Below are positions 51,147 to 60,890 of a DNA stretch of 64,000 bases, in pieces. The notes under the pieces were generated by a model. The model saw only the letters and a program-made list of their open reading frames with translations, had not been told where the DNA came from and made no database searches. Each line of letters begins with the position of its first letter. Position 1 is the stretch's first letter. Source of the DNA: Candidatus Uhrbacteria bacterium (GTDB lineage Bacteria; Patescibacteriota; Patescibacteriia; UBA9934; GWF2-40-263); NCBI GenBank assembly GCA_016188495.1, contig JACPHU010000006.1, forward strand, positions 1,857-65,856. Reading direction: 5' to 3'. Both the position numbers and the translations under genes were made by a program.

Positions 51147-51338
51147 TGTGAGCCACCTTTTTGTTTTGTAGGTGTATAAAGGACGAAGAAGAACCTTGGT
51201 GAGATTGTATGAAATTCGCTGTCCTGTCAATGGACTTGACAGAGGGTTAAGAGGAGAGTAACTTAGTGTGTGTAAGACACTATAAAGCGTTTTACCCCAT
51301 AAAATAAGGAGACTTTTGGGTAACTTTGACACGTTCTA

Positions 51339-51367
51339 TTGACAAAAACACTGAAATCGGGTATAGT
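51339..51367 (+). promoter_or_regulatory. Sigma70 promoter of the GC-rich island
   Basis: TTGACA-17bp-TATAGT. Confidence 0.7.
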
Positions 51368-51530
51368 GCTCTCTTCGTTCATTGGCAAAGTCTGGCTTGC
51401 CACGCCTTAAATACTCTTACATCAAAGTATTTAGAGCGCGGTAAGTCAGTAATAAAAAAAGTAGTTGATAGTCACCGGCATGGTTGTTGGTGGCTCAGAA
51501 ATCCAATCCCGAAAGGGAAGGAGAAAGCAA

Positions 51531-52613
51531 ATGTTGAATGAACAGTTCAAGGTCGCTCTGGTTGCCGAAGGTGTCAACGAGGAGAATCTCAAGCTCCTCG
51601 AGTCTCAGGAGCTGTGTGATGTCAGCGATTTCGCGACCCTGCAGCCTGCGGATCTGACTGTCGTCGGAATGAAGCTCGGTGGGATCAATAAGGTCTTCAG
51701 GGTTGTTCGAAGACTGGCGGCTCCCGTGGCCTCCACTCCGGCTCCGGAAGTTCAGATTCCCGTGACTCAGGTGACCCCGGTGTCCCTTCCTCCGGTCGTT
51801 CCGGTTCAGGTGGCTCCCGTGGCCCATGCTCCGGTTTCCTCCGGTGGGGGAGATCTGGGTACGCTGTTTTCGACGCTGATTCCGCCCCAGACCCCGCAGG
51901 AAGCGGCCGAAAGGCTCTGTCGTGCCCCGAGTGACGCAAAGAGCCAGGAGTACTGGAGGCAGTTCTTCGGTCAGGAGACCCTGATCGTCTCCTCGACTCC
52001 GGGCTCCATCGATCGCGACAAGACCATGGAAGCGGTCGAAATCTGGGTGACCTCCGGTGAGGCTCCTTCGGAGCTCGATGGAGTGCCTCTGCTGAGCATC
52101 AGCGAGTTCCTCCAGTCCACCTTCGGTGCGTGCCCCTTCACCGGGGACCGTATCATCCGAGGTGGGATGTCGCTGAAGACCAACGTTCACTACGGGTTCT
52201 TGCTCGGGAATGATGTTTCGCTCTCGGCGATCCAGAATAGCCCCGGAATGAACTTCGTGGCGTTCGCCGCCGAAACCGGCAAGATCACCCGCGACCTTCA
52301 GACCTGGAAGACGCGGATGCTCGAGCTTCGCAGCATGGTCCAGGGCAAGGATATCTCCAGCCCCACGGCCATCAAGGCGGCCGTCGCCGGATCCGCGTGG
52401 GATGAAGTCGCGACCGACTACATCCGTGACGCCAATTCCGGTGGTGTCGTCGCCATGCGCGCTCGGGCACGGCTGGTGACCCAGGCCAAGCGACGGACCG
52501 TTCGGGCCCGCAACGACCTGTCGGGAATCGGAGAGGCTCTGACCTCCGGTTTCGACAAGGTCACCCGCCAGGACGGCTCCGTCCCCCGTCGGGATTTCGA
52601 ATCCCGCGGCTGA
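51531..52613 (+). CDS. Hypothetical protein with N-terminal SAM-like domain and Pro/Val-rich linker
   Basis: RBS AAGGAG; LQPADLTVVGMKLGGINKV fits the SAM pattern L...DL..lGi.lG...K; GC-rich codon usage. Confidence 0.7.
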   Translation: MLNEQFKVALVAEGVNEENLKLLESQELCDVSDFATLQPADLTVVGMKLGGINKVFRVVRRLAAPVASTPAPEVQIPVTQVTPVSLPPVVPVQVAPVAHAPVSSGGGDLGTLFSTLIPPQTPQEAAERLCRAPSDAKSQEYWRQFFGQETLIVSSTPGSIDRDKTMEAVEIWVTSGEAPSELDGVPLLSISEFLQSTFGACPFTGDRIIRGGMSLKTNVHYGFLLGNDVSLSAIQNSPGMNFVAFAAETGKITRDLQTWKTRMLELRSMVQGKDISSPTAIKAAVAGSAWDEVATDYIRDANSGGVVAMRARARLVTQAKRRTVRARNDLSGIGEALTSGFDKVTRQDGSVPRRDFESRG

Positions 52614-52856: not shown

Positions 52857-54014
52857 ATGTCCAAACCCAATGAACTCAGACATGACAACCTAGTAATCGG
52901 GGTGAATTTTCCGGTCAAGTCGACTAACGCCGGGACAGGGTTGGTGGGTGGCTTCCCCTGGCCGGTACACAATGCGGCCGACTATAAGGACCGTGTTCCT
53001 GCCGCGTGGTTATCGGCCATGGGGCCTCGTCATGTGATCTTTTTCCTGGGTGCACCTGACCCGACCCGTCATTTTGATGAACAGGGTCTTGCCGAGCACG
53101 AGGTGGAACTGGATCAGAACGGCTGTCCCCGCGATCGTGAGATGTGGTTTGATTTTCAGGGGATGAATACCCTTGATCGTCACGTTGCTGTTGTGCTCGG
53201 TGTCCAGGGACTCAATGCTCTGACCGGACTTCCGACTTCTTCGGAACACAAGAGAGGACTGTACAACGGTCCCGGGTGTCCGAAACCCGAGCAGTATCCG
53301 GATGTTTGTCCGGTGCACGGTACCCCGTTCGAAGATCATCGGCGGATGTGTTCGGACTGTGGGTTCGAGTGGCCGTATCAGAATTACGTCACCAACTCCG
53401 TGACCGATCCAATGTTCCGCTTCTGGTGGGATGGGTGGCGCGGGGCGGACGGCAAGATCCAGCAATTCGCCATGCGTCCGGCTTCGGCTGGTGTCGGCGT
53501 GGCCCAGCAGGTGCTGGGCGAGGATCGTGCGCTGGGACTGAGTCTGGCTGTGTTTCTCAAGAAGCGACCCAAGCCGGCTCCGGTTTCCTCCTATCGTCAC
53601 TCCGATTTCCTCGAGTCTGACATCGTTTCCAAAGGGTTTTTGGGAGGTGGTGGAAAGAAGGTCTATTCTTTTGGAATGGGCGGAGAAGAGGAGGAAGAGG
53701 TGTATCGTTCGCCCACCCTCGGAACCACACGCGAGGCCACTCGTGGAGACACTACTCGAGGTGGTGTCCTGGGCGGCCGTCCTTCCGTTTCTCGGATCGG
53801 TGCTCCGTCTCGGATGGAGTTCGTCGCCGGTCGAACGGTCTTTCAGAAACTCTATTCCGATAATTCCACCCTGGACGAGTGGAGGGATGAACCCGAGGTG
53901 ACCTTCACCTTGATTCCCGTGGACATGGCGTGGGCGGCCGAGGTAACCAAGTACGGTCCCACCACGCGACAAGTTGCCACCGGACCGTTCGCGGGTCTCA
54001 AGAGCGTCGGCTGA
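52857..54014 (+). CDS. Conserved-looking hypothetical protein with inserted Zn ribbon
   Basis: RBS AAAGGAG; CPVH...CSDC; blocks EMWFDF, NALTG, QNYV, WWDG, IQQF. Confidence 0.7.
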   Translation: MSKPNELRHDNLVIGVNFPVKSTNAGTGLVGGFPWPVHNAADYKDRVPAAWLSAMGPRHVIFFLGAPDPTRHFDEQGLAEHEVELDQNGCPRDREMWFDFQGMNTLDRHVAVVLGVQGLNALTGLPTSSEHKRGLYNGPGCPKPEQYPDVCPVHGTPFEDHRRMCSDCGFEWPYQNYVTNSVTDPMFRFWWDGWRGADGKIQQFAMRPASAGVGVAQQVLGEDRALGLSLAVFLKKRPKPAPVSSYRHSDFLESDIVSKGFLGGGGKKVYSFGMGGEEEEEVYRSPTLGTTREATRGDTTRGGVLGGRPSVSRIGAPSRMEFVAGRTVFQKLYSDNSTLDEWRDEPEVTFTLIPVDMAWAAEVTKYGPTTRQVATGPFAGLKSVG

Positions 54015-54164
54015 TTTCCGACGTAACACGGTCAAGATCGATTCCCACGGAGTCGGCCCTTGACCCTTTTCTTGGGAAGAGAAGAGGAGTAATCCTTTGG
54101 CTCTTCTGAAGAGAAGAAATTTGCTTTCGACCTTTACAAATGAAGTTGAGATAAGGAGGTTTAG

Positions 54165-55004
54165 ATGAAAGGCAATAACACAGAGGCGACCTACTATCCT
54201 GGTAAGTCAGTGGCGAAAACCCCGCATTATGAGCTGTTTTACTGTGAGACCGAGAACGGTCGGCAGTGTCTCATGCAGATCGCTAAAGCACCGGAACACA
54301 ACGGGGTACTCGATCGGTTCGCATATGTGCTGCGCGAGCTCAAGCATAAGGCAGACGAGCTCGAAGAAGAACATGAAGAGAAGAAAAAGGATCCTGCTAA
54401 TGGGATTCCTGCTCACGTGTTCTTGAATTACGATCTTGGTTTCCCCCAGGTCGTCGACAGTTTCATCAGTTCCGAACAGGGTGGATGTCGAATCAATATC
54501 TTGGCCTTTAGGGAAGTTGAGCGCGTGTCTGACATGCACCCTCTGGCAAAGTATATTCGAGTGGCCAATGAGCGGTGCGATCTGCGAACCAGTATCTGGA
54601 TCATGGGCAGGACGCTCAAGTTGATCGATCTGGTGCATATGATGGGATTTTCTCTTCAGGAGATGAAGACAGGTAATATTCTCATTCAGCCTGAAGAACA
54701 TCACGTTGTGCTGTTTAATCCTGGCATTCAAATGTGTCCGGGAGAAGTTCCTTTGGAACAGCGGCGCAAGGAGATTGCTCAGGCGACCACGTCGGTTATT
54801 CAGTTGTTGGGCGGCAATATTCTTACACGAGAATTCCCCCAAGATCTCAAGTCGGAGATTGGGTGTAAGGAATATACGGATCATCTCCTCATGCTGGCCG
54901 CCGGAGGAGAATACGACGCCCATGCGGCGTATCGTCGTTTCTATCAGCTTATTGATCGGTTTTGGGAGCGGAAGTTTCATCGTGCTCAGTTTTTGGCACG
55001 CTGA
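54165..55004 (+). CDS. Protein-kinase-like fold protein with degenerate catalytic motifs (pseudokinase)
   Basis: RBS AAGGAGG; LIDLVHMMGFSLQEMKTGNILIQPEEHHVVLFN aligns to subdomains VIa-VII without the catalytic Asp or DFG. Confidence 0.65.
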   Translation: MKGNNTEATYYPGKSVAKTPHYELFYCETENGRQCLMQIAKAPEHNGVLDRFAYVLRELKHKADELEEEHEEKKKDPANGIPAHVFLNYDLGFPQVVDSFISSEQGGCRINILAFREVERVSDMHPLAKYIRVANERCDLRTSIWIMGRTLKLIDLVHMMGFSLQEMKTGNILIQPEEHHVVLFNPGIQMCPGEVPLEQRRKEIAQATTSVIQLLGGNILTREFPQDLKSEIGCKEYTDHLLMLAAGGEYDAHAAYRRFYQLIDRFWERKFHRAQFLAR

Positions 55005-55040
55005 AAATAGACGAAACATGAACGAAAAGGGAGAGAAAAA

Positions 55041-56180
55041 ATGGGAAATCGTACCCCGTCTCGTGATACGTATGAAGAGGCAAAATCGACATATGTTCCG
55101 GATTCTGGACCTGCTACAGCTCGCGCTGAACAACAAGCGCGAAGGACAGGAAAACTTCATCCGCTGGTTGATCCGGCGGAATTCGGAGTGATCCGCCCTT
55201 CGCATATGCGAATGAAACAGCTTCTAAACGGGCTTTGGTCTGTGAATGTAGGAACACCATTGCCACGTCAGCGGCGCGTAGATACGACGGCCAGTATGGG
55301 TAATAACGTCGATGTGGTTCTTGGTGTCTTGCAGGATGCGTACGAGCTGGCTATGCAGGTTCTGCCTGTTGGGTATGACCTGCAGGAAGCCAATGAGATC
55401 TTCGGAGATATACAAGATAGGTTTGTGCTTTGCCGTTCGCAGTTTGAGATGCTCTCTGAGCGGATCGTGGAGCAGCTGACCTTGATGGTTCCTGAGCGTG
55501 ATGGCGGAGATGTTCCAGAAGACCCTCACTACGGGTTGTTTGGAGCAGCCTACTTGACCGATGCCTATATTAATCGCATCGGTCTTAAGGGTTACGACTT
55601 CACCGTCTCTGATGCAGAGGCTCGATACGAGTTGGAGGCACGACATCTTCGTCGAATTTTCGGAGATCAGGTCTTCGATAAGACGAAGGAAAACGGTTAC
55701 GATATTGATCCTCGGCATCTTCCCAGCACCAAAGAGGTGGTTCGTGAGCTTGCCAAACGATCTCATTATTTCTTCCTTCAGATCAAGTCCTCTTCACAGG
55801 CGACTCGTTTCTGGACGGATGTGTTCGGTTCTGAACGGGTCGTGCTGGTACCAGATGCCAAATATGTCCCTCATATTGAAGCCGTGATCATGGGTCTGAC
55901 CGAAGGGACCCTGAGTCTGTCGGACGTCACTCCGTTTCTCATGAAGAATGGCGTCGATCGCAATGACGCTCAACGAATCGTCCGGGCTGTGGGACATATT
56001 CCGATCGGCGCGCAGGCTGCTTTGCCCAACGTTGCCCGGCGTCCCAAAGCAGGTGACCTGTTTCGAGAGAAGCCTGTCGGTACGCAGACCAGTCCTTGGC
56101 CGCTGACCCCCGAGGAAATCGCCGCGTTTAATCTCGACTCTTCGGCAGAGCAGGACGAAGGCGAGATCAGCTGGGTCTGA
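55041..56180 (+). CDS. vWA-like domain protein
   Basis: MIDAS-like DTTASMG, GDIQD, QFE, GGDVPED, KGYDFTVSD. Confidence 0.7.
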   Translation: MGNRTPSRDTYEEAKSTYVPDSGPATARAEQQARRTGKLHPLVDPAEFGVIRPSHMRMKQLLNGLWSVNVGTPLPRQRRVDTTASMGNNVDVVLGVLQDAYELAMQVLPVGYDLQEANEIFGDIQDRFVLCRSQFEMLSERIVEQLTLMVPERDGGDVPEDPHYGLFGAAYLTDAYINRIGLKGYDFTVSDAEARYELEARHLRRIFGDQVFDKTKENGYDIDPRHLPSTKEVVRELAKRSHYFFLQIKSSSQATRFWTDVFGSERVVLVPDAKYVPHIEAVIMGLTEGTLSLSDVTPFLMKNGVDRNDAQRIVRAVGHIPIGAQAALPNVARRPKAGDLFREKPVGTQTSPWPLTPEEIAAFNLDSSAEQDEGEISWV

Positions 56181-56188
56181 GGTAACAA

Positions 56189-56235
56189 CCCGCCCGACTG
56201 AACGACGAGGAGTTCTGTTCAGTCGTTCGGGCAAG
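56189..56235. mobile_element. Family B palindromic mini-element (right end degenerate)
   Basis: CCCGCCCGACTGAACGACGAGGAGTTCTGTTCAGTCGTTCGGGC. Confidence 0.7.
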
Positions 56236-56408
56236 CGCGGTCGAAGTGATTCCATAGGGAGTCATTTCGACCTTTTTTTGAAGAGAGAAAAGAATAGAGA
56301 ATAGTCTTTTTACTCTCTTGAAAAGAAGGAAGTGTTGAATCGATACGGCCTTCGATAGGCTCAGGCAATAATGAGGTTTTTCAACATTTTTCATTGAGGA
56401 GATGATCC

Positions 56409-57785
56409 ATGGTCAGTAATGTTATTGTCCCCACCGACCATGGTCCTGGGGACGGTGGCAAGGGCGGAGTCGTTCATCGACTTTGTTGCGATCGTCGAGT
56501 CCATACCGTTTTGAAAGAAGGGATGTTTTGCGGTAATCATGGGATCTGTACGGCTACAGGGCAGCGTTATGCCTTTAGTTTGTGGGGATGCGGAACGTTG
56601 GGAGGCGTGAGGACTCACTTTACTCAGCGATTTGTTGCCTCGGCCGTTGGGCTCCTTAATGAAGCGCGAGATTTGCGATATTTATTTGGAATTCATGATC
56701 CCTTTGAGTTGCTTACGATAGACGAACGCACCCTGTTTGCCACGTCTTATCACGGCTTCATGTCGCGTCTGAAGGAACTTGCTCTGGGGAAGAATCCGCG
56801 CGGGACCGTTGGCACAGGAGCAGGCGCTGGTTATCGCGATGCGCAGCGAGTTCCGGAACTGGCTCTTTATGCTCGAGATTTGTCACGACCGGATTTGAGA
56901 GATCGTCTCGCTGCTGTTCGTGAACAGGTTATTCGTGATCTGGAGCCGATCATTCAGAATGGGTTTCTTCCGGAGGATCAGGAAGCAGCCGATCAAGAGA
57001 TCAGTCATCTGTATGATGATGGATTTCTCGAGTATGTTGTGGATCAATTCCGGCAGGTAGCACGTCTGGTCAAAGTCGTGGGGCCTGAATATCTGGGTCA
57101 AGAGATTCTTTCCAAAGACGGCGTTGTCGTCGTGGAAAAGTCTCACGGCATTCTGACGGACCATTATCAGGGTTTCCATCCGCACACCAGTGCGATTCGG
57201 ACATTGCCGTCTTTCACGCGCTCAATGCTCGAAGAGGCTGAGTACCGCGGACGGATCACGGATATTGCGGTGCATCGGGCGTATCAAATCCGTCACGGTG
57301 CAGGACCCATGCCAACGCATGATCCTGCCATGGGCGAGCACTTGTTGCCTGGCAGCAACAAGGATGAAAATCGCTACCAGGGCAAGGTCCGCGTGGGACC
57401 GCTTGATCTGGTGATGCTACGCTACGCCCTTGCCTGTGCGGGCCCTATGAACGGCCTCGCCCTCACTTGGTTTGATCAGGTTCAGCTCAACGGCGAGTGG
57501 AACATTTGTCACCGTTACCGTGGGGCAGATGATCCACGATTCTTTACACCAGAGGGCGAGATCAAGGTTCGACAGGGGGATGACGAAGATCAGCTTGCTC
57601 ACCAAGAAGCTCTTGGCAAAGCGTTGCTGGAAGTCACTCCTGAGATCACGACCTACCCAATCTCCAAGAACGCTTCGCGCGAAGAGCTGTACAAACTGTG
57701 TACGGACATCCTTCAGGAACATCTTGGAATCCCCGTAAGAATGATTTCGTTTGGCCCTACCGAACGAGACAAACTTTGCAAATAA
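56409..57785 (+). CDS. Adenylosuccinate-synthetase-like ligase (divergent PurA homologue)
   Basis: GDGGKG P-loop, GTVGTGAG, RAYQIRHGAGPMPT, RVGPLDLVMLRYA, LALTWFD, SFGPT. Confidence 0.85.
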   Translation: MVSNVIVPTDHGPGDGGKGGVVHRLCCDRRVHTVLKEGMFCGNHGICTATGQRYAFSLWGCGTLGGVRTHFTQRFVASAVGLLNEARDLRYLFGIHDPFELLTIDERTLFATSYHGFMSRLKELALGKNPRGTVGTGAGAGYRDAQRVPELALYARDLSRPDLRDRLAAVREQVIRDLEPIIQNGFLPEDQEAADQEISHLYDDGFLEYVVDQFRQVARLVKVVGPEYLGQEILSKDGVVVVEKSHGILTDHYQGFHPHTSAIRTLPSFTRSMLEEAEYRGRITDIAVHRAYQIRHGAGPMPTHDPAMGEHLLPGSNKDENRYQGKVRVGPLDLVMLRYALACAGPMNGLALTWFDQVQLNGEWNICHRYRGADDPRFFTPEGEIKVRQGDDEDQLAHQEALGKALLEVTPEITTYPISKNASREELYKLCTDILQEHLGIPVRMISFGPTERDKLCK

Positions 57786-57859
57786 AAACGACCCGAGCAG
57801 TCACGACGACCGCTCGGGTTTTTCTTTTTTCTTCATCCCTTTACTACTCTACTACTTTG

Positions 57860-59743
57860 CTACTCACTACCTTTTTCTTTGGATACTTTCGGCAGAAAAA
57901 CATTTCTTACAAATAATTTCGTTGCTGTCTGTCGATATCCGGAATCCCAGAACATGCTTTGCCCATCAATCTGATCGGCATGGGGTGTTTGGATGCCTCC
58001 ATACGAAGGAAAAAAGCGTTCATATCCTTTGTGCATCAAACGGTATTGCAGGGTGTCGCGTTCTAATTCTTCCAAGTAGAGACCTCTGGCTTGGCGGCCA
58101 TGAATGGCGTTTGTCGGATCATCCGTCAAATAAGGCACCAGCAGTTTTTTACGCATGTCTTGTATGGCCCGCGTGTTACCTTCCCAAGCTGCTCCAAAAA
58201 GAACATGCGTCCAGGAACGTTCGCCCATGAACGGTTCAGATGTTTTTAGATCATTGCGAATCGTGAGCGTGTCTCCAGAGGTTTCAAGCCAAAATTGCAC
58301 AGCATCTCCTTCGATTCGTTCGTGAATAAATATGCGTTTCAGAAGATTTCGTATCTCTTCTTTTTGTTCCATCGGCGTTCCGGGTTTAACAAACACCGCG
58401 ACATCGATGTCGGAGTTTTGTGAACCGTATTTAAGCCTTGATCCAAATAAGAGAATAATAGGATAAACATATTTGGACAGTTCAGGATCTTTTTCTATGG
58501 CATGCGCGATATCGTTTATCTCGCGCAATTCTTTTTTCATCAGTTTGAGATTTTCAGAAAATGGTCCCTCGAGTGTGGGTAGAGAGATGTCTAACACACG
58601 AAGTTCTTTTTCATCCACCACATCTAGGCGATAGAGCCGGCGGAATGTTTTAGAAAGAGACTCTCGCAGATCAAAGGTTTCCTGTTCCTTCCAAAGATTT
58701 ATGAGGGTTCCATGGAACTGTTCGTACATTCTTTTTGCTTTTTCTGTATCCGTGTGCGCGATTTCTTCGATGGCTTTTCGGATTCCTTCAACGAGCGCTT
58801 TCTGGGTTTCAAGATGTACGTCTGGCGCAAGAAAGGCCTTTGCTGTTTCTTCACCAAACGTTTGGGTGACGACGACTGTTTTGATTCCCTCGCTCACTGC
58901 TTCGATAGATTTTCGTTTTTTTTCCTGTCTCATCCATGCCGTACGTTTTTTTGTTTCATATTCTTCTGTATCAATTTGCGCAAAGTCTCGTCCTAGACGC
59001 GCTTGGATTGATTCTAAGGTGATGGGTTTGATTTCCGGGATTTCTTTTTTTAGTGATTGAGTCTCTTGGGGAAAAAATCCTAGATCTGCCAACACAGGGA
59101 GTGTCTCTGTAATACTTTGTTTTAAGATGTTGTCTTCCGTCGTCTCTTTGAGGTCTGACACTTCCTGTGTTGTCATGAGACCTTTTTCAACAAGTTTTGG
59201 AATCAGGTGCGCCGCTTTCACGACCCGCGGAAGATCTCCGGTGCGCAGTTCTACTTCCATCACGTCACCATCCACAAAATTCGCACGAACATCCTGGATA
59301 CTCAACAATCGTTTCCACGTGTTCATGTAGACGTCTTTGAATCGTTCCATGGCGGGACGAAGAGTATCTGATGCAGGTTTCCAACTTGAATCAGGAAGAA
59401 ATTCAAAAGGGAGATACAAAAGGATTCGTCTATATTCAGGATAGGTTTCAAGAAGATCACTTACTGAAGTATAGAGATCCTCGATTTGGCCTTCTGTCAG
59501 GCAATGCTGTTCGACGGCTTCTTGAAGCGAAACATCGGGTCGTGGAAGACGATCTATCACAACCGTTAGCCGTTCATTGAGAACTCTGCGCGATTCTAAT
59601 TCCCCTAGAAATTCTTTGTTGTGTGAGAGCTCTTTAGCCCAGGTGTTTTCAAGCCCTGTTGGACGCAAAAAGGTCTCAATCGCCGGAGAAACCACAGGGA
59701 TTTTAGGTTCCATTTCAGCTCTTTGTTCTAAATTTTCTTTCAT
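57860..59743 (-). CDS. Large hypothetical protein with C-terminal Pol-beta-type nucleotidyltransferase domain
   Basis: LLFGSRLKYGSQNSDIDVAVFV (hG[S]x9-13DhD). Confidence 0.7.
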   Translation of the reverse strand: MKENLEQRAEMEPKIPVVSPAIETFLRPTGLENTWAKELSHNKEFLGELESRRVLNERLTVVIDRLPRPDVSLQEAVEQHCLTEGQIEDLYTSVSDLLETYPEYRRILLYLPFEFLPDSSWKPASDTLRPAMERFKDVYMNTWKRLLSIQDVRANFVDGDVMEVELRTGDLPRVVKAAHLIPKLVEKGLMTTQEVSDLKETTEDNILKQSITETLPVLADLGFFPQETQSLKKEIPEIKPITLESIQARLGRDFAQIDTEEYETKKRTAWMRQEKKRKSIEAVSEGIKTVVVTQTFGEETAKAFLAPDVHLETQKALVEGIRKAIEEIAHTDTEKAKRMYEQFHGTLINLWKEQETFDLRESLSKTFRRLYRLDVVDEKELRVLDISLPTLEGPFSENLKLMKKELREINDIAHAIEKDPELSKYVYPIILLFGSRLKYGSQNSDIDVAVFVKPGTPMEQKEEIRNLLKRIFIHERIEGDAVQFWLETSGDTLTIRNDLKTSEPFMGERSWTHVLFGAAWEGNTRAIQDMRKKLLVPYLTDDPTNAIHGRQARGLYLEELERDTLQYRLMHKGYERFFPSYGGIQTPHADQIDGQSMFWDSGYRQTATKLFVRNVFLPKVSKEKGSE

Positions 59744-59959: not shown

Positions 59960-60890
59960 ATGGATCCACGAGAACTCACAGACAACGAACGCCGTCTCGC
60001 CGTACCCGAAGAGAAGCGAACCGGGATTATCCTGCTCATCAAGCAGGTATTGCTCCTGGATACTCTGGAGCAAGCAGCTTCTTTCTTCGTTGCTCTGCGC
60101 GGTCGCGCCGAAGGGCGAGTTGTGCTGACCTTCGGAGAACTTCGCACCTTGGCCAACACCGCCAAGATCGTTCAGGCGGGTGCGAAAGCGGGTATCGAGG
60201 ATGTGGAGAGCCAGGCAGTGGATTTTGCCGACGTCCTGGCCTCTATCGCTGATCCCAACATGCCCATCTGCGAGAAATGTCACCGCTATGCGGTTGACGT
60301 GGAAGGCAGTGTTGTCACCCTTATCAAGGGAGTTCGTTGCCCCCGGTCTTTACGAGATCAGTGACCTGGTTCGCGACGCTCTGGAACAGGAGGGACTCAA
60401 GACCGAGGAAGGGGAGATTAATGTGGCTCACTTCCTCATGTATCTGGCCCATGATCCTTCCGTCGCTTCCCGTTTCCGAGGCAAGGACGAGGTGCTCGTA
60501 TCATTGGGTAGGCCGAGTATGTTCGGAGCCTATGATCTGACCTCGGTTCGCGCCGAAGTGAGGAAGGGGTGGAAGCCCACCTTTGGCAACGAGACGCCGC
60601 CTCCCGTTCAGAAGAAGGCGAGTTCCGGTGCTCCTCTTTCTCTGACTCGGGAACAGATAAAGATTTTGAGGAAGATCCTCGGTGAGCTAATCTATGATCC
60701 CTCTGCCATCAGAATGGTCGTCGAAGACGCAGGTCTTATCGTATGGAGGATTGAGATAAGCGGAGTGCCAGAAATAATTTGGGAGAACATCATCAAGGAG
60801 GCAGACAAAGAGGTGCGTCTGCGTGCTTTGATCGAGACGCTCAGTGAGCGTTACCCCGCCAATCAGACGCTGAAGTCTTTTCTCAACTGA
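59960..60890 (+). pseudogene. Probable single gene split by a +1 frameshift in a C5 run (60340-60344); Cys/His motif plus C-terminal EAD1-like domain
   Basis: RBS GGAGG; removing one C gives CEKCH...GVRCPGLYEISDLVRDAL; C-terminus LTREQIKILRKIL...IWENIIKEA..EVRLRALIETLSERYPANQTL; TTGACA promoter at 59817. Confidence 0.6.

Follow-up and report, generated by a model that had tools for sequence, protein, structure and literature searches.

A PurA-fold enzyme and its vWA-domain partner form an apparently undescribed module in a Candidatus Uhrbacteria bacterium and in phages

Gene organization of the locus

The window, a 64,000-nucleotide stretch of contig JACPHU010000006.1 from a Candidatus Uhrbacteria bacterium (assembly GCA_016188495.1), carries a module in which a PurA-fold enzyme is accompanied by a pseudokinase and by a protein with a von Willebrand factor A (vWA) domain, and which is a real, apparently undescribed variant system built on the chemistry of PurA. 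In the list of open reading frames (ORFs) of the window, the genes for the pseudokinase (279 amino acids), the vWA protein (379) and the enzyme (458) are all co-oriented, and a purine-rich stretch resembling a ribosome-binding site lies upstream of each ATG, as the initial annotation had described. The motifs quoted there are likewise all present in the window proteins, namely QEMKTGN and FNP in the pseudokinase, DTTAS in the vWA protein, and GDGGKG, EGMFCGNHG, EKSHG and RHGAGP in the enzyme, although EGMFCGNHG proved peculiar to the window copy, the consensus of the family being GGAQGSHG. The boundaries proposed initially were too narrow: rather than being limited to three genes, the unit starts at an NrtR-type box (51263), takes in two accessory genes upstream of the triad and ends with the nucleotidyltransferase on the opposite strand (57860-59743; Table 1). 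The SAM-domain gene, the NrtR link, the large phage branch and the Met-Gly start of the vWA protein had likewise escaped the initial annotation. Long antisense or overlapping ORFs of the window were taken as shadows.

Table 1. Features of the module in the window
Feature	Positions	Strand	Remarks
21-bp palindromic GT-N7-AC box, NrtR type	51263..51283	no strand	Matrix scan; link to the regulator is inferred
Sigma-70-like promoter, TTGACA-17-TATAGT	51339..51367	+	11/12 matches; consensus match only
Accessory gene 1: SAM-like N-terminal domain, Pro/Val-rich linker, C-terminal domain of no known family	51531..52613	+	62% GC
Accessory gene 2: conserved CPxH...CxxC motif, putative Zn site	52857..54014	+	58% GC
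Double-hairpin intergenic element	54031..54115	+	Resembles 56239-56345 and one copy on contig C15
Pseudokinase, protein-kinase fold	54165..55004	+	Family profile; residues
vWA protein, MIDAS-type residues intact, Met-Gly start conserved	55041..56180	+	Predicted structure; alignment
Terminator-like hairpin and T run, between the vWA and PurA-like genes	56239..56272	+	
PurA-fold enzyme, D15/K18/H44 core intact, aspartate site replaced (H296, Y323, Q324, V327)	56409..57785	+	
Hairpin flanked by T runs on both sides, between convergent genes	57791..57819	no strand	
Pol-beta-superfamily nucleotidyltransferase, large helical N-terminal part	57860..59743	-	In Patescibacteria, the module's fifth conserved gene

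The PurA-fold enzyme and its vWA partner

The enzyme is homologous to Escherichia coli PurA (PDB 1ade) over its whole length (E 2e-11) and matches PF00709 (E 5e-28), but scores 66 bits against an equivalog cut-off of 396 for TIGR00184. It is the only PF00709 match of the source genome (1.19 Mb, 96% complete, 29 contigs, 44% GC). Residues D15, K18 and H44 of the window enzyme correspond to Asp13, Lys16 and His41 of E. coli PurA and are retained, as is the guanine-site residue Asp333 (E. coli numbering here and below). The aspartate site is replaced, with His, Tyr, Gln, a deletion/Lys and Val found at the positions of Val273, Thr300, Thr301, Arg303 and Arg305, respectively. The roles given here to further residues of E. 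coli PurA, in the aspartate site and as ligands of the 5'-phosphate, are assumed ones. Arg303 contacts both the O2' of IMP and the aspartate according to the cited part of PMC8342488, and Asp13 is described as essential in PurA and as Ser in PurZ in the cited section of PMC12884076.

The same pattern recurs in 231 distant enzymes, which retain Asp13 (226), Lys16 (226), His41 (231), Gln224 (230) and also Thr239. Within their aspartate site, Thr300 is replaced by Trp, Phe or Tyr in 219 and Thr301 by Gln in 224, one residue is deleted at the position of Arg303, and Arg305 is mostly Phe, Leu, Ile or Val. Val273 is His in all 231, a residue that, like Cys129, was partly selected for by the RHG and GSCG motifs of the scan patterns; His273 is invariant also in enzyme sets not selected on RHG. 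In addition, Asn38 is replaced by Gln, Thr129 is replaced by Cys in the distant enzymes and by Ile or Val in the Patescibacteria branch, and Arg143 is lost.

The initial annotation had suggested a non-housekeeping enzyme and had named a PurA phylogeny including PurZ as a check. In a maximum-likelihood tree of 46 rows, obtained by a quick search and rooted at the midpoint only, all 31 vWA-linked enzymes lie on one side of a branch with an SH-aLRT value of 100, and 13 canonical PurA and two long-branched PurZ rows lie on the other, such that no clustering with canonical PurA is observed. No gene of the PurB (fumarase/lyase) family was found in the whole source genome at 96% completeness, which extends the earlier remark that purB is missing from the window. 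A lyase-family gene is present in 2 of 25 module genomes, compared with 21 of the 25 top-scoring genomes with canonical PurA, and a search with PF10397 gave 1/25 and 0/5 genomes. The separate branch, the replaced aspartate site and the missing PurB bear out a non-housekeeping role. Judged by sequence, the enzyme is neither PurA nor PurZ and belongs to a third large branch of the PurA family; among 767 homologues in PMC12884076, 251 are assigned to PurA and 151 to PurZ, the rest not being discussed in the section cited.

PurA (EC 6.3.4.4) shares with the window enzyme the whole-length homology, the P-loop Asp and Lys, His41 and the guanine-site Asp333, whereas the module enzyme is set apart by its replaced aspartate site, the loss of Thr129 and Arg143, the missing PurB, an obligate vWA neighbour and a branch of its own. 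PurZ and PurZ0, which act in phage 2-aminoadenine synthesis, are likewise PurA paralogues repurposed in conflict, and PHROG 1211 lumps both. However, PurZ carries Ser in place of Asp13, uses aspartate together with the host PurB and lies beside DatZ, MazZ and DpoZ, whereas the module branch keeps Asp13 and has other neighbours.

The vWA protein has no sequence match in Pfam, PHROGs or the PDB. Its AlphaFold2 model (mean predicted local distance difference test score, pLDDT, 94.5) gives 170 Foldseek matches at E<=0.001 and is closest to an integrin beta-I domain (Z 14.6, root-mean-square deviation 3.3, 194 residues aligned), which substantiates the fold first proposed from a motif. Residues D81, T83, S85, E160 and D191 of the predicted metal ion-dependent adhesion site (MIDAS) are invariant in 69/69 aligned sequences. 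One member of the vWA family (P0373) is fused to a U-box domain.

The vWA partner is further marked by a conserved Met-Gly start, which was scored where the start codon lay 40-100 residues ahead of the MIDAS, with 30 ORFs lacking the MIDAS pattern and six truncated ones excluded. It is present in 218 of 227 non-identical vWAs with the enzyme <=1.5 kb downstream, where the following residues are fixed as M-G-x-x-x-aromatic-S/T-x-x-x-Y/F, and in 11 of 12 vWAs located >1.5 kb from the enzyme, in loci that had been retrieved via the enzyme. Under the same rule, the enzyme itself starts with Met-Gly in 18/284 cases. A sister triad exists in which a pyruvate-kinase-like barrel replaces the PurA-like enzyme beside a J-domain kinase and the vWA (L079:8426-11457; L376-L381; L389:3019-5927); the one kinase of this type that was inspected, in L079, keeps the catalytic Asp. 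Met-Gly is found in none of nine related vWAs without an adjacent PurA-like gene (the second copy in L079, L376-L382 and L389), the enzyme being absent, on another contig or >200 kb away in the seven genomes of L376-L382. By comparison, it is found in 4/4 vWAs that have both barrel and enzyme (L129, L373, L383 and L387). Genome G675 carries both vWA types on one contig, and they differ in their Met-Gly start accordingly; in G720, the enzyme-linked vWA begins Met-Ala-Lys.

Distribution, regulation and accessory genes

The profile of the kinase family matches CK2 kinases (best E 1e-6) and also finds DnaJ-kinase relatives. In the window protein, the beta3 Lys is replaced by Gln38, no catalytic Asp is present and the DFG Asp is Asn185 (FNP), such that the beta3 Lys, the catalytic-loop Asp and the DFG Asp of an active Ser/Thr kinase are all missing, in agreement with its earlier designation as a pseudokinase. 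Of 101 distant kinase relatives, 83 have Ala and 4 have Asp at the position of the catalytic Asp, and 70 carry an N-terminal J-domain with the HPD motif. Long pseudokinases of 550-575 amino acids with an N-terminal double CxxC region were observed at L124:6109-7779, L128:5913-7640 and L130:5751-7406.

In the nucleotidyltransferase, G434, S435 and D445 are invariant (61/61) and D447 nearly so (60/61), and the GS motif and DxD are present; a candidate third acid is Glu in 39/61 and Gln483 in the window copy. Its match in the PDB by sequence is HI0073 (E 1e-4). The AlphaFold2 model (pLDDT 92.7), searched whole, gave no Foldseek match at E<=0.001, only generic helical-repeat matches (best Z 9.6), and TAL-effector matches to the profile were dismissed as repeat noise.

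Named close homologues are nearly all from Patescibacteria. Among 144 genome hits, the best 80 were analysed: 78 of these loci contain the vWA gene, 74 the kinase, 73 the nucleotidyltransferase and 68 a SAM-domain gene, with all vWA and kinase misses and six of the seven nucleotidyltransferase misses lying at contig ends. The module had been called unexpected in a reduced genome: it is indeed rare there, with a long vWA-family match in two and a short one in two of 300 other genomes of the phylum and a strong match in one of eight other genomes of the genus, yet it is a recurrent accessory of Patescibacteria. A PF00709 match occurs in 55 of the same 300 genomes, nearly all scoring as ordinary PurA. 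Three viral-classed contigs (L100, L101 and L099) carry the Patescibacteria-type module, two of them with the nucleotidyltransferase and SAM genes.

The order kinase-vWA-enzyme is also found in Bxz1-type mycobacteriophages and in Rhodococcus, Tsukamurella, Variovorax and Allorhizobium plasmids. Scans of viral and metagenome sequences yielded at least 556, as well as 90 and 478, confirmed stretches, 80 of each being used (239 distant loci). Where at least 3 kb was available on both sides, the vWA gene is present in 61/64, 62/63 and 15/16 loci and the kinase in 10/64, 52/63 and 15/16, and a Met-rich protein stands in for the kinase in 53/80 loci of one phage branch. The near-constant vWA, set against the variable kinase and nucleotidyltransferase, identifies enzyme and vWA as the invariant core. 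The survey thus upholds the conserved linkage of the three genes in genome, viral and metagenome loci, and confirms the earlier remark that such clusters lie beside NUDIX genes in Actinobacteria. The protein replacing the kinase, upstream of the vWA, has a Met/Gly-rich tail and belongs to no known family (L102:5753-6544, L103:6039-6752 and L106:6480-7088). Neighbours of the Patescibacteria module include NadE, PncA, PncB, NadD and ADP-ribosylglycohydrolase, and those of the distant loci NAMPT (13/239), Thg1 (12/239) and pyruvate-kinase-like barrels. In Allorhizobium (L004:11386-20960), genes for an AAA ATPase, DUF5682, DUF4132, a second vWA and a SWIM protein come after the triad, and a NUDIX gene upstream of it is divergently oriented.

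Within the 300 nt that precede the kinase, 26/77 loci contain a 21-bp palindrome, TTAGTGT-N7-ACACTAA, compared with 0/79 gene-internal control stretches, as scored with a matrix trained on the same module-upstream regions; an untrained palindrome count gives 28/77 against a shuffle mean of 9.3 and maximum of 18. With a matrix derived from the module-upstream regions of other genomes, positions 51263-51283 represent the best-scoring box in the whole source genome (19.6 bits). This predicted site matches the 21-bp GT-N7-AC consensus of NrtR and sits between divergent genes, such that it could also serve an M50 peptidase gene. The core site of NrtR is GT-N7-AC, and ADP-ribose frees NrtR from DNA, according to the part of PMC2330246 cited, whose NrtR regulons share the box with the module. 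An NrtR domain is encoded in 18 of 25 module genomes compared with 14 of 301 sampled genomes, the 25 having been hand-picked and nine of them already having a NUDIX neighbour; among the remaining 16, NrtR is present in nine. The module is probably part of an ADP-ribose response, triggered by NAD breakdown. Contig C8 of the source genome carries an NAD/ADP-ribose island (L119:1396-11929) with genes for a NadD-like/NAD-kinase fusion, ADP-ribosylglycohydrolase, PncB, two inosine-uridine nucleoside hydrolase-like proteins, a radical SAM protein and NadE.

Similarities exist to several known systems. The mycobacteriophage cluster annotated as 'PurA-like adenylosuccinate synthetase' in Bxz1-type phages (e.g. 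Pleione gp265-266-268) is of the same family, which 201 Mycobacterium phage records match, and has the same gene order, but bears a J-domain on the kinase and has no nucleotidyltransferase or SAM gene. In the Ter-type triad of TerY, phosphatase and kinase, the vWA protein adjoins a kinase that is active and paired with a phosphatase, whereas the module has a pseudokinase and a third gene of PurA fold. The anti-ADP-ribosylation systems centred on ARG have NrtR, ADP-ribosylglycohydrolase neighbours and a vWA component in common with the module and, in the cited part of PMC9503650, are proposed to counter viral ADP-ribosylation. Adenylosuccinate synthetase goes unmentioned in the main texts of PMC2330246 and PMC9503650, and a description of the module, including the Bxz1-type phage cluster, was not found in the literature searched, to which the supplements of these two papers and of PMC12884076 did not belong. 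The unexplained nrtX-nrtY genes of PMC2330246 might belong to the module. A defence assignment had been envisaged initially; with PADLOC 2.0, no component profile matched the vWA or PurA-like protein, the hits being limited to weak generic kinase and nucleotidyltransferase domains (E>=0.004).

Upstream of the triad, the match of accessory gene 1 to the usual SAM-domain gene of the module is limited to the first ~90 residues (E 6e-4), and the protein has no Pfam or PHROG match. Accessory gene 2, with five database matches including itself, is an accessory part of the module, as its homologues adjoin the module in L012, L124 and L130; an Atlas search returned nothing usable for it or for the C-terminal part of the SAM gene. 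Along the six genes of the window, the GC content drops from 62% to 44%, the latter being the value of the genome, and in relatives of the same family different module subtypes occupy one site at a riboflavin gene (L121, L124 and L130), which together suggest a variable, mosaic locus. Whether the genes form a single transcript is not certain because terminator-like hairpins lie inside the gene run. The hairpin between the convergent genes, with its flanking T runs, is likely a bidirectional terminator. The elements at 54031-54115, 56239-56345 and near position 179016 of contig C15 have in common a GATTCC...GGAGTC core and a T run, and are possibly a small repeat or an attenuator. A further strong hairpin with 24-nt arms (51392-51449) separates the promoter-like site from accessory gene 1. 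Adjoining the nucleotidyltransferase, an overlapping ORF pair (59960-60890) ends in an EAD1 domain (E 4e-11); none of the 101 other loci used for comparison contains a homologue.

Proposed activity and competing explanations

Our preferred reading, advanced tentatively from comparison of sequences, is that the N-terminal glycine of the vWA partner would be the acceptor to which the PurA-fold enzyme ligates a 6-oxopurine nucleotide activated by GTP. An N-terminal Met is normally removed before Gly, and its cleavage from the vWA protein would leave a free Gly alpha-amine. GTP would phosphorylate the purine O6, as in PurA, although free IMP may not be the substrate, given the loss of two ligands of the 5'-phosphate (Thr129 and Arg143), and the Gly amine of the vWA would then replace the aspartate amine as the nucleophile. 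The remodelled pocket fits a Gly amine, since the carboxylate-binding arginines have been lost and the room for a side chain is taken up. If a peptide bond replaces the alpha-carboxylate, the loss of Arg303 and Arg305 would be accounted for, and the missing side chain would account for the His, Trp/Tyr and Gln that fill the pocket. The product would be an N6-linked purine nucleotide on the vWA protein, for which PurB would not be required. More speculatively, the tagged vWA may act as a switch or carrier with the pseudokinase as a scaffold, the nucleotidyltransferase and SAM-domain protein of Patescibacteria may read or extend the tag, and phages may deploy the core against NAD-based host defences.

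Several observations weigh against this reading. Ten enzyme-adjacent vWAs have no Gly2, and nine of their ten enzymes keep the catalytic core; co-loss of Gly2 and enzyme activity is not seen, the pocket being intact in 8/10 compared with 282/303. Several of these vWAs begin Met-Ala/Ser-Lys, for which a free amine is still expected. Most of the nine PurA-less vWAs are 46-55% identical to one query and perhaps represent two to three independent lineages, and a conserved N-terminal Gly could just as well serve as a structural plug or as an activator. With the PurA-less set drawn mostly from one clade and the ten exceptions having largely intact enzymes, the Met-Gly pattern is a lead rather than proof. 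For the link to ADP-ribose, no NrtR-domain (PF21906) hit was obtained in the source genome (96% complete, 29 contigs), and viral loci show no enrichment of the box (4/74 and 0/71, compared with 1 and 3 in controls). The nucleotidyltransferase is found in 0/239 of the distant loci (80 of each scan). The window copy itself is atypical, with the enzyme departing from ten positions conserved in >=90% of 53 relatives (median 3), as many as in only three of the 53 others; four of these departures fall in the MFCGN loop, and the near-invariant Gln41 is among the residues lost. The window kinase departs at four conserved positions (median 1), and the vWA protein and the nucleotidyltransferase are typical. 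The usual SAM gene is also not in the window, its place being taken by accessory gene 1 with only the SAM-like N-terminus. Together with the lack of an NrtR-domain hit, the enzyme departures and the replaced SAM gene suggest that the window copy may be drifting or impaired, and may be decaying.

A somewhat less probable alternative is a one-step amination, in which the enzyme joins ammonia or some other small amine without charge to a free 6-oxopurine nucleotide (IMP, dIMP/dITP, ITP, IDP-ribose or deamino-NAD), serving to repair deaminated nucleotides or to generate a signal, with the N-terminus of the vWA merely completing or gating the active site. The His/aromatic/Gln/Asn pocket could hold an ammonium ion, PurB would again be dispensable, and the neighbours, from NadE, PncA, PncB, NadD and ADP-ribosylglycohydrolase to NAMPT, Thg1 and the pyruvate-kinase-like barrels, are enzymes of NAD salvage and nucleotide metabolism. 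However, such a reaction alone leaves the near-obligate vWA, the J-domain pseudokinase and the exact Gly2 unaccounted for, and no glutamine amidotransferase is among the recurrent neighbour families identified.

The intact MIDAS, the J-domains of the distant kinases, the vWA-U-box fusion and the Met-rich partner that replaces the kinase in one phage branch would fit an improbable second alternative, in which vWA and pseudokinase form a chaperone-like clamp that presents another client protein to the enzyme. The client would be modified on a lysine or its N-terminus and could be the SAM-domain or Met-rich partner or ADP-ribosylated proteins; vWA chaperones are proposed for the NrtR/ARG systems in the cited part of PMC9503650. 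Yet the enzyme-linked Gly2 is left unexplained, and no one client is common to all branches. Similarly improbable is a PurA fold that acts as a GTPase or phosphotransfer switch, sensing a purine nucleotide and signalling via the vWA with no amine ligation. The first-step residues are retained and the aspartate site is gone, the kinase-vWA pair is found beside a pyruvate-kinase-like barrel as well, and vWA proteins are often paired with NTPases, but the strong conservation of the replaced pocket (His 231/231, Gln 224/231) points to a second, specific ligand. An ordinary adenylosuccinate synthetase or PurZ-like Z-base enzyme, as the PF00709 match, the status as the only PurA homologue of the genome and the automatic labels would have it, is hardly credible given the replaced aspartate loop, the separate branch, the missing lyase partner and an Asp13 where PurZ has Ser (PMC12884076, section cited).

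Glycine ligation to the vWA remains our preferred reading, and a wider picture can be drawn around it, which we hold more loosely still: a new post-translational modification, the GTP-driven N6-purinylation of an N-terminal glycine by a rewired adenylosuccinate synthetase, would be switched on by ADP-ribose in ultrasmall bacteria and, in NAD-based conflict, would be a counter-measure carried by hundreds of large phages, with the nucleotidyltransferase of Patescibacteria perhaps extending the protein-linked nucleotide. The large third branch of the PurA family, to which at least 556 viral loci and 201 mycobacteriophage records belong, carries the wrong label of adenylosuccinate synthetase or PurZ, and this leads to overcounting of purine pathways in reduced genomes and of Z-base calls in phages. 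The core of the module is already present in cultured phages with a laboratory host. If the glycine-acceptor model is true, PurA chemistry would be modifying a protein, for which we know of no precedent.

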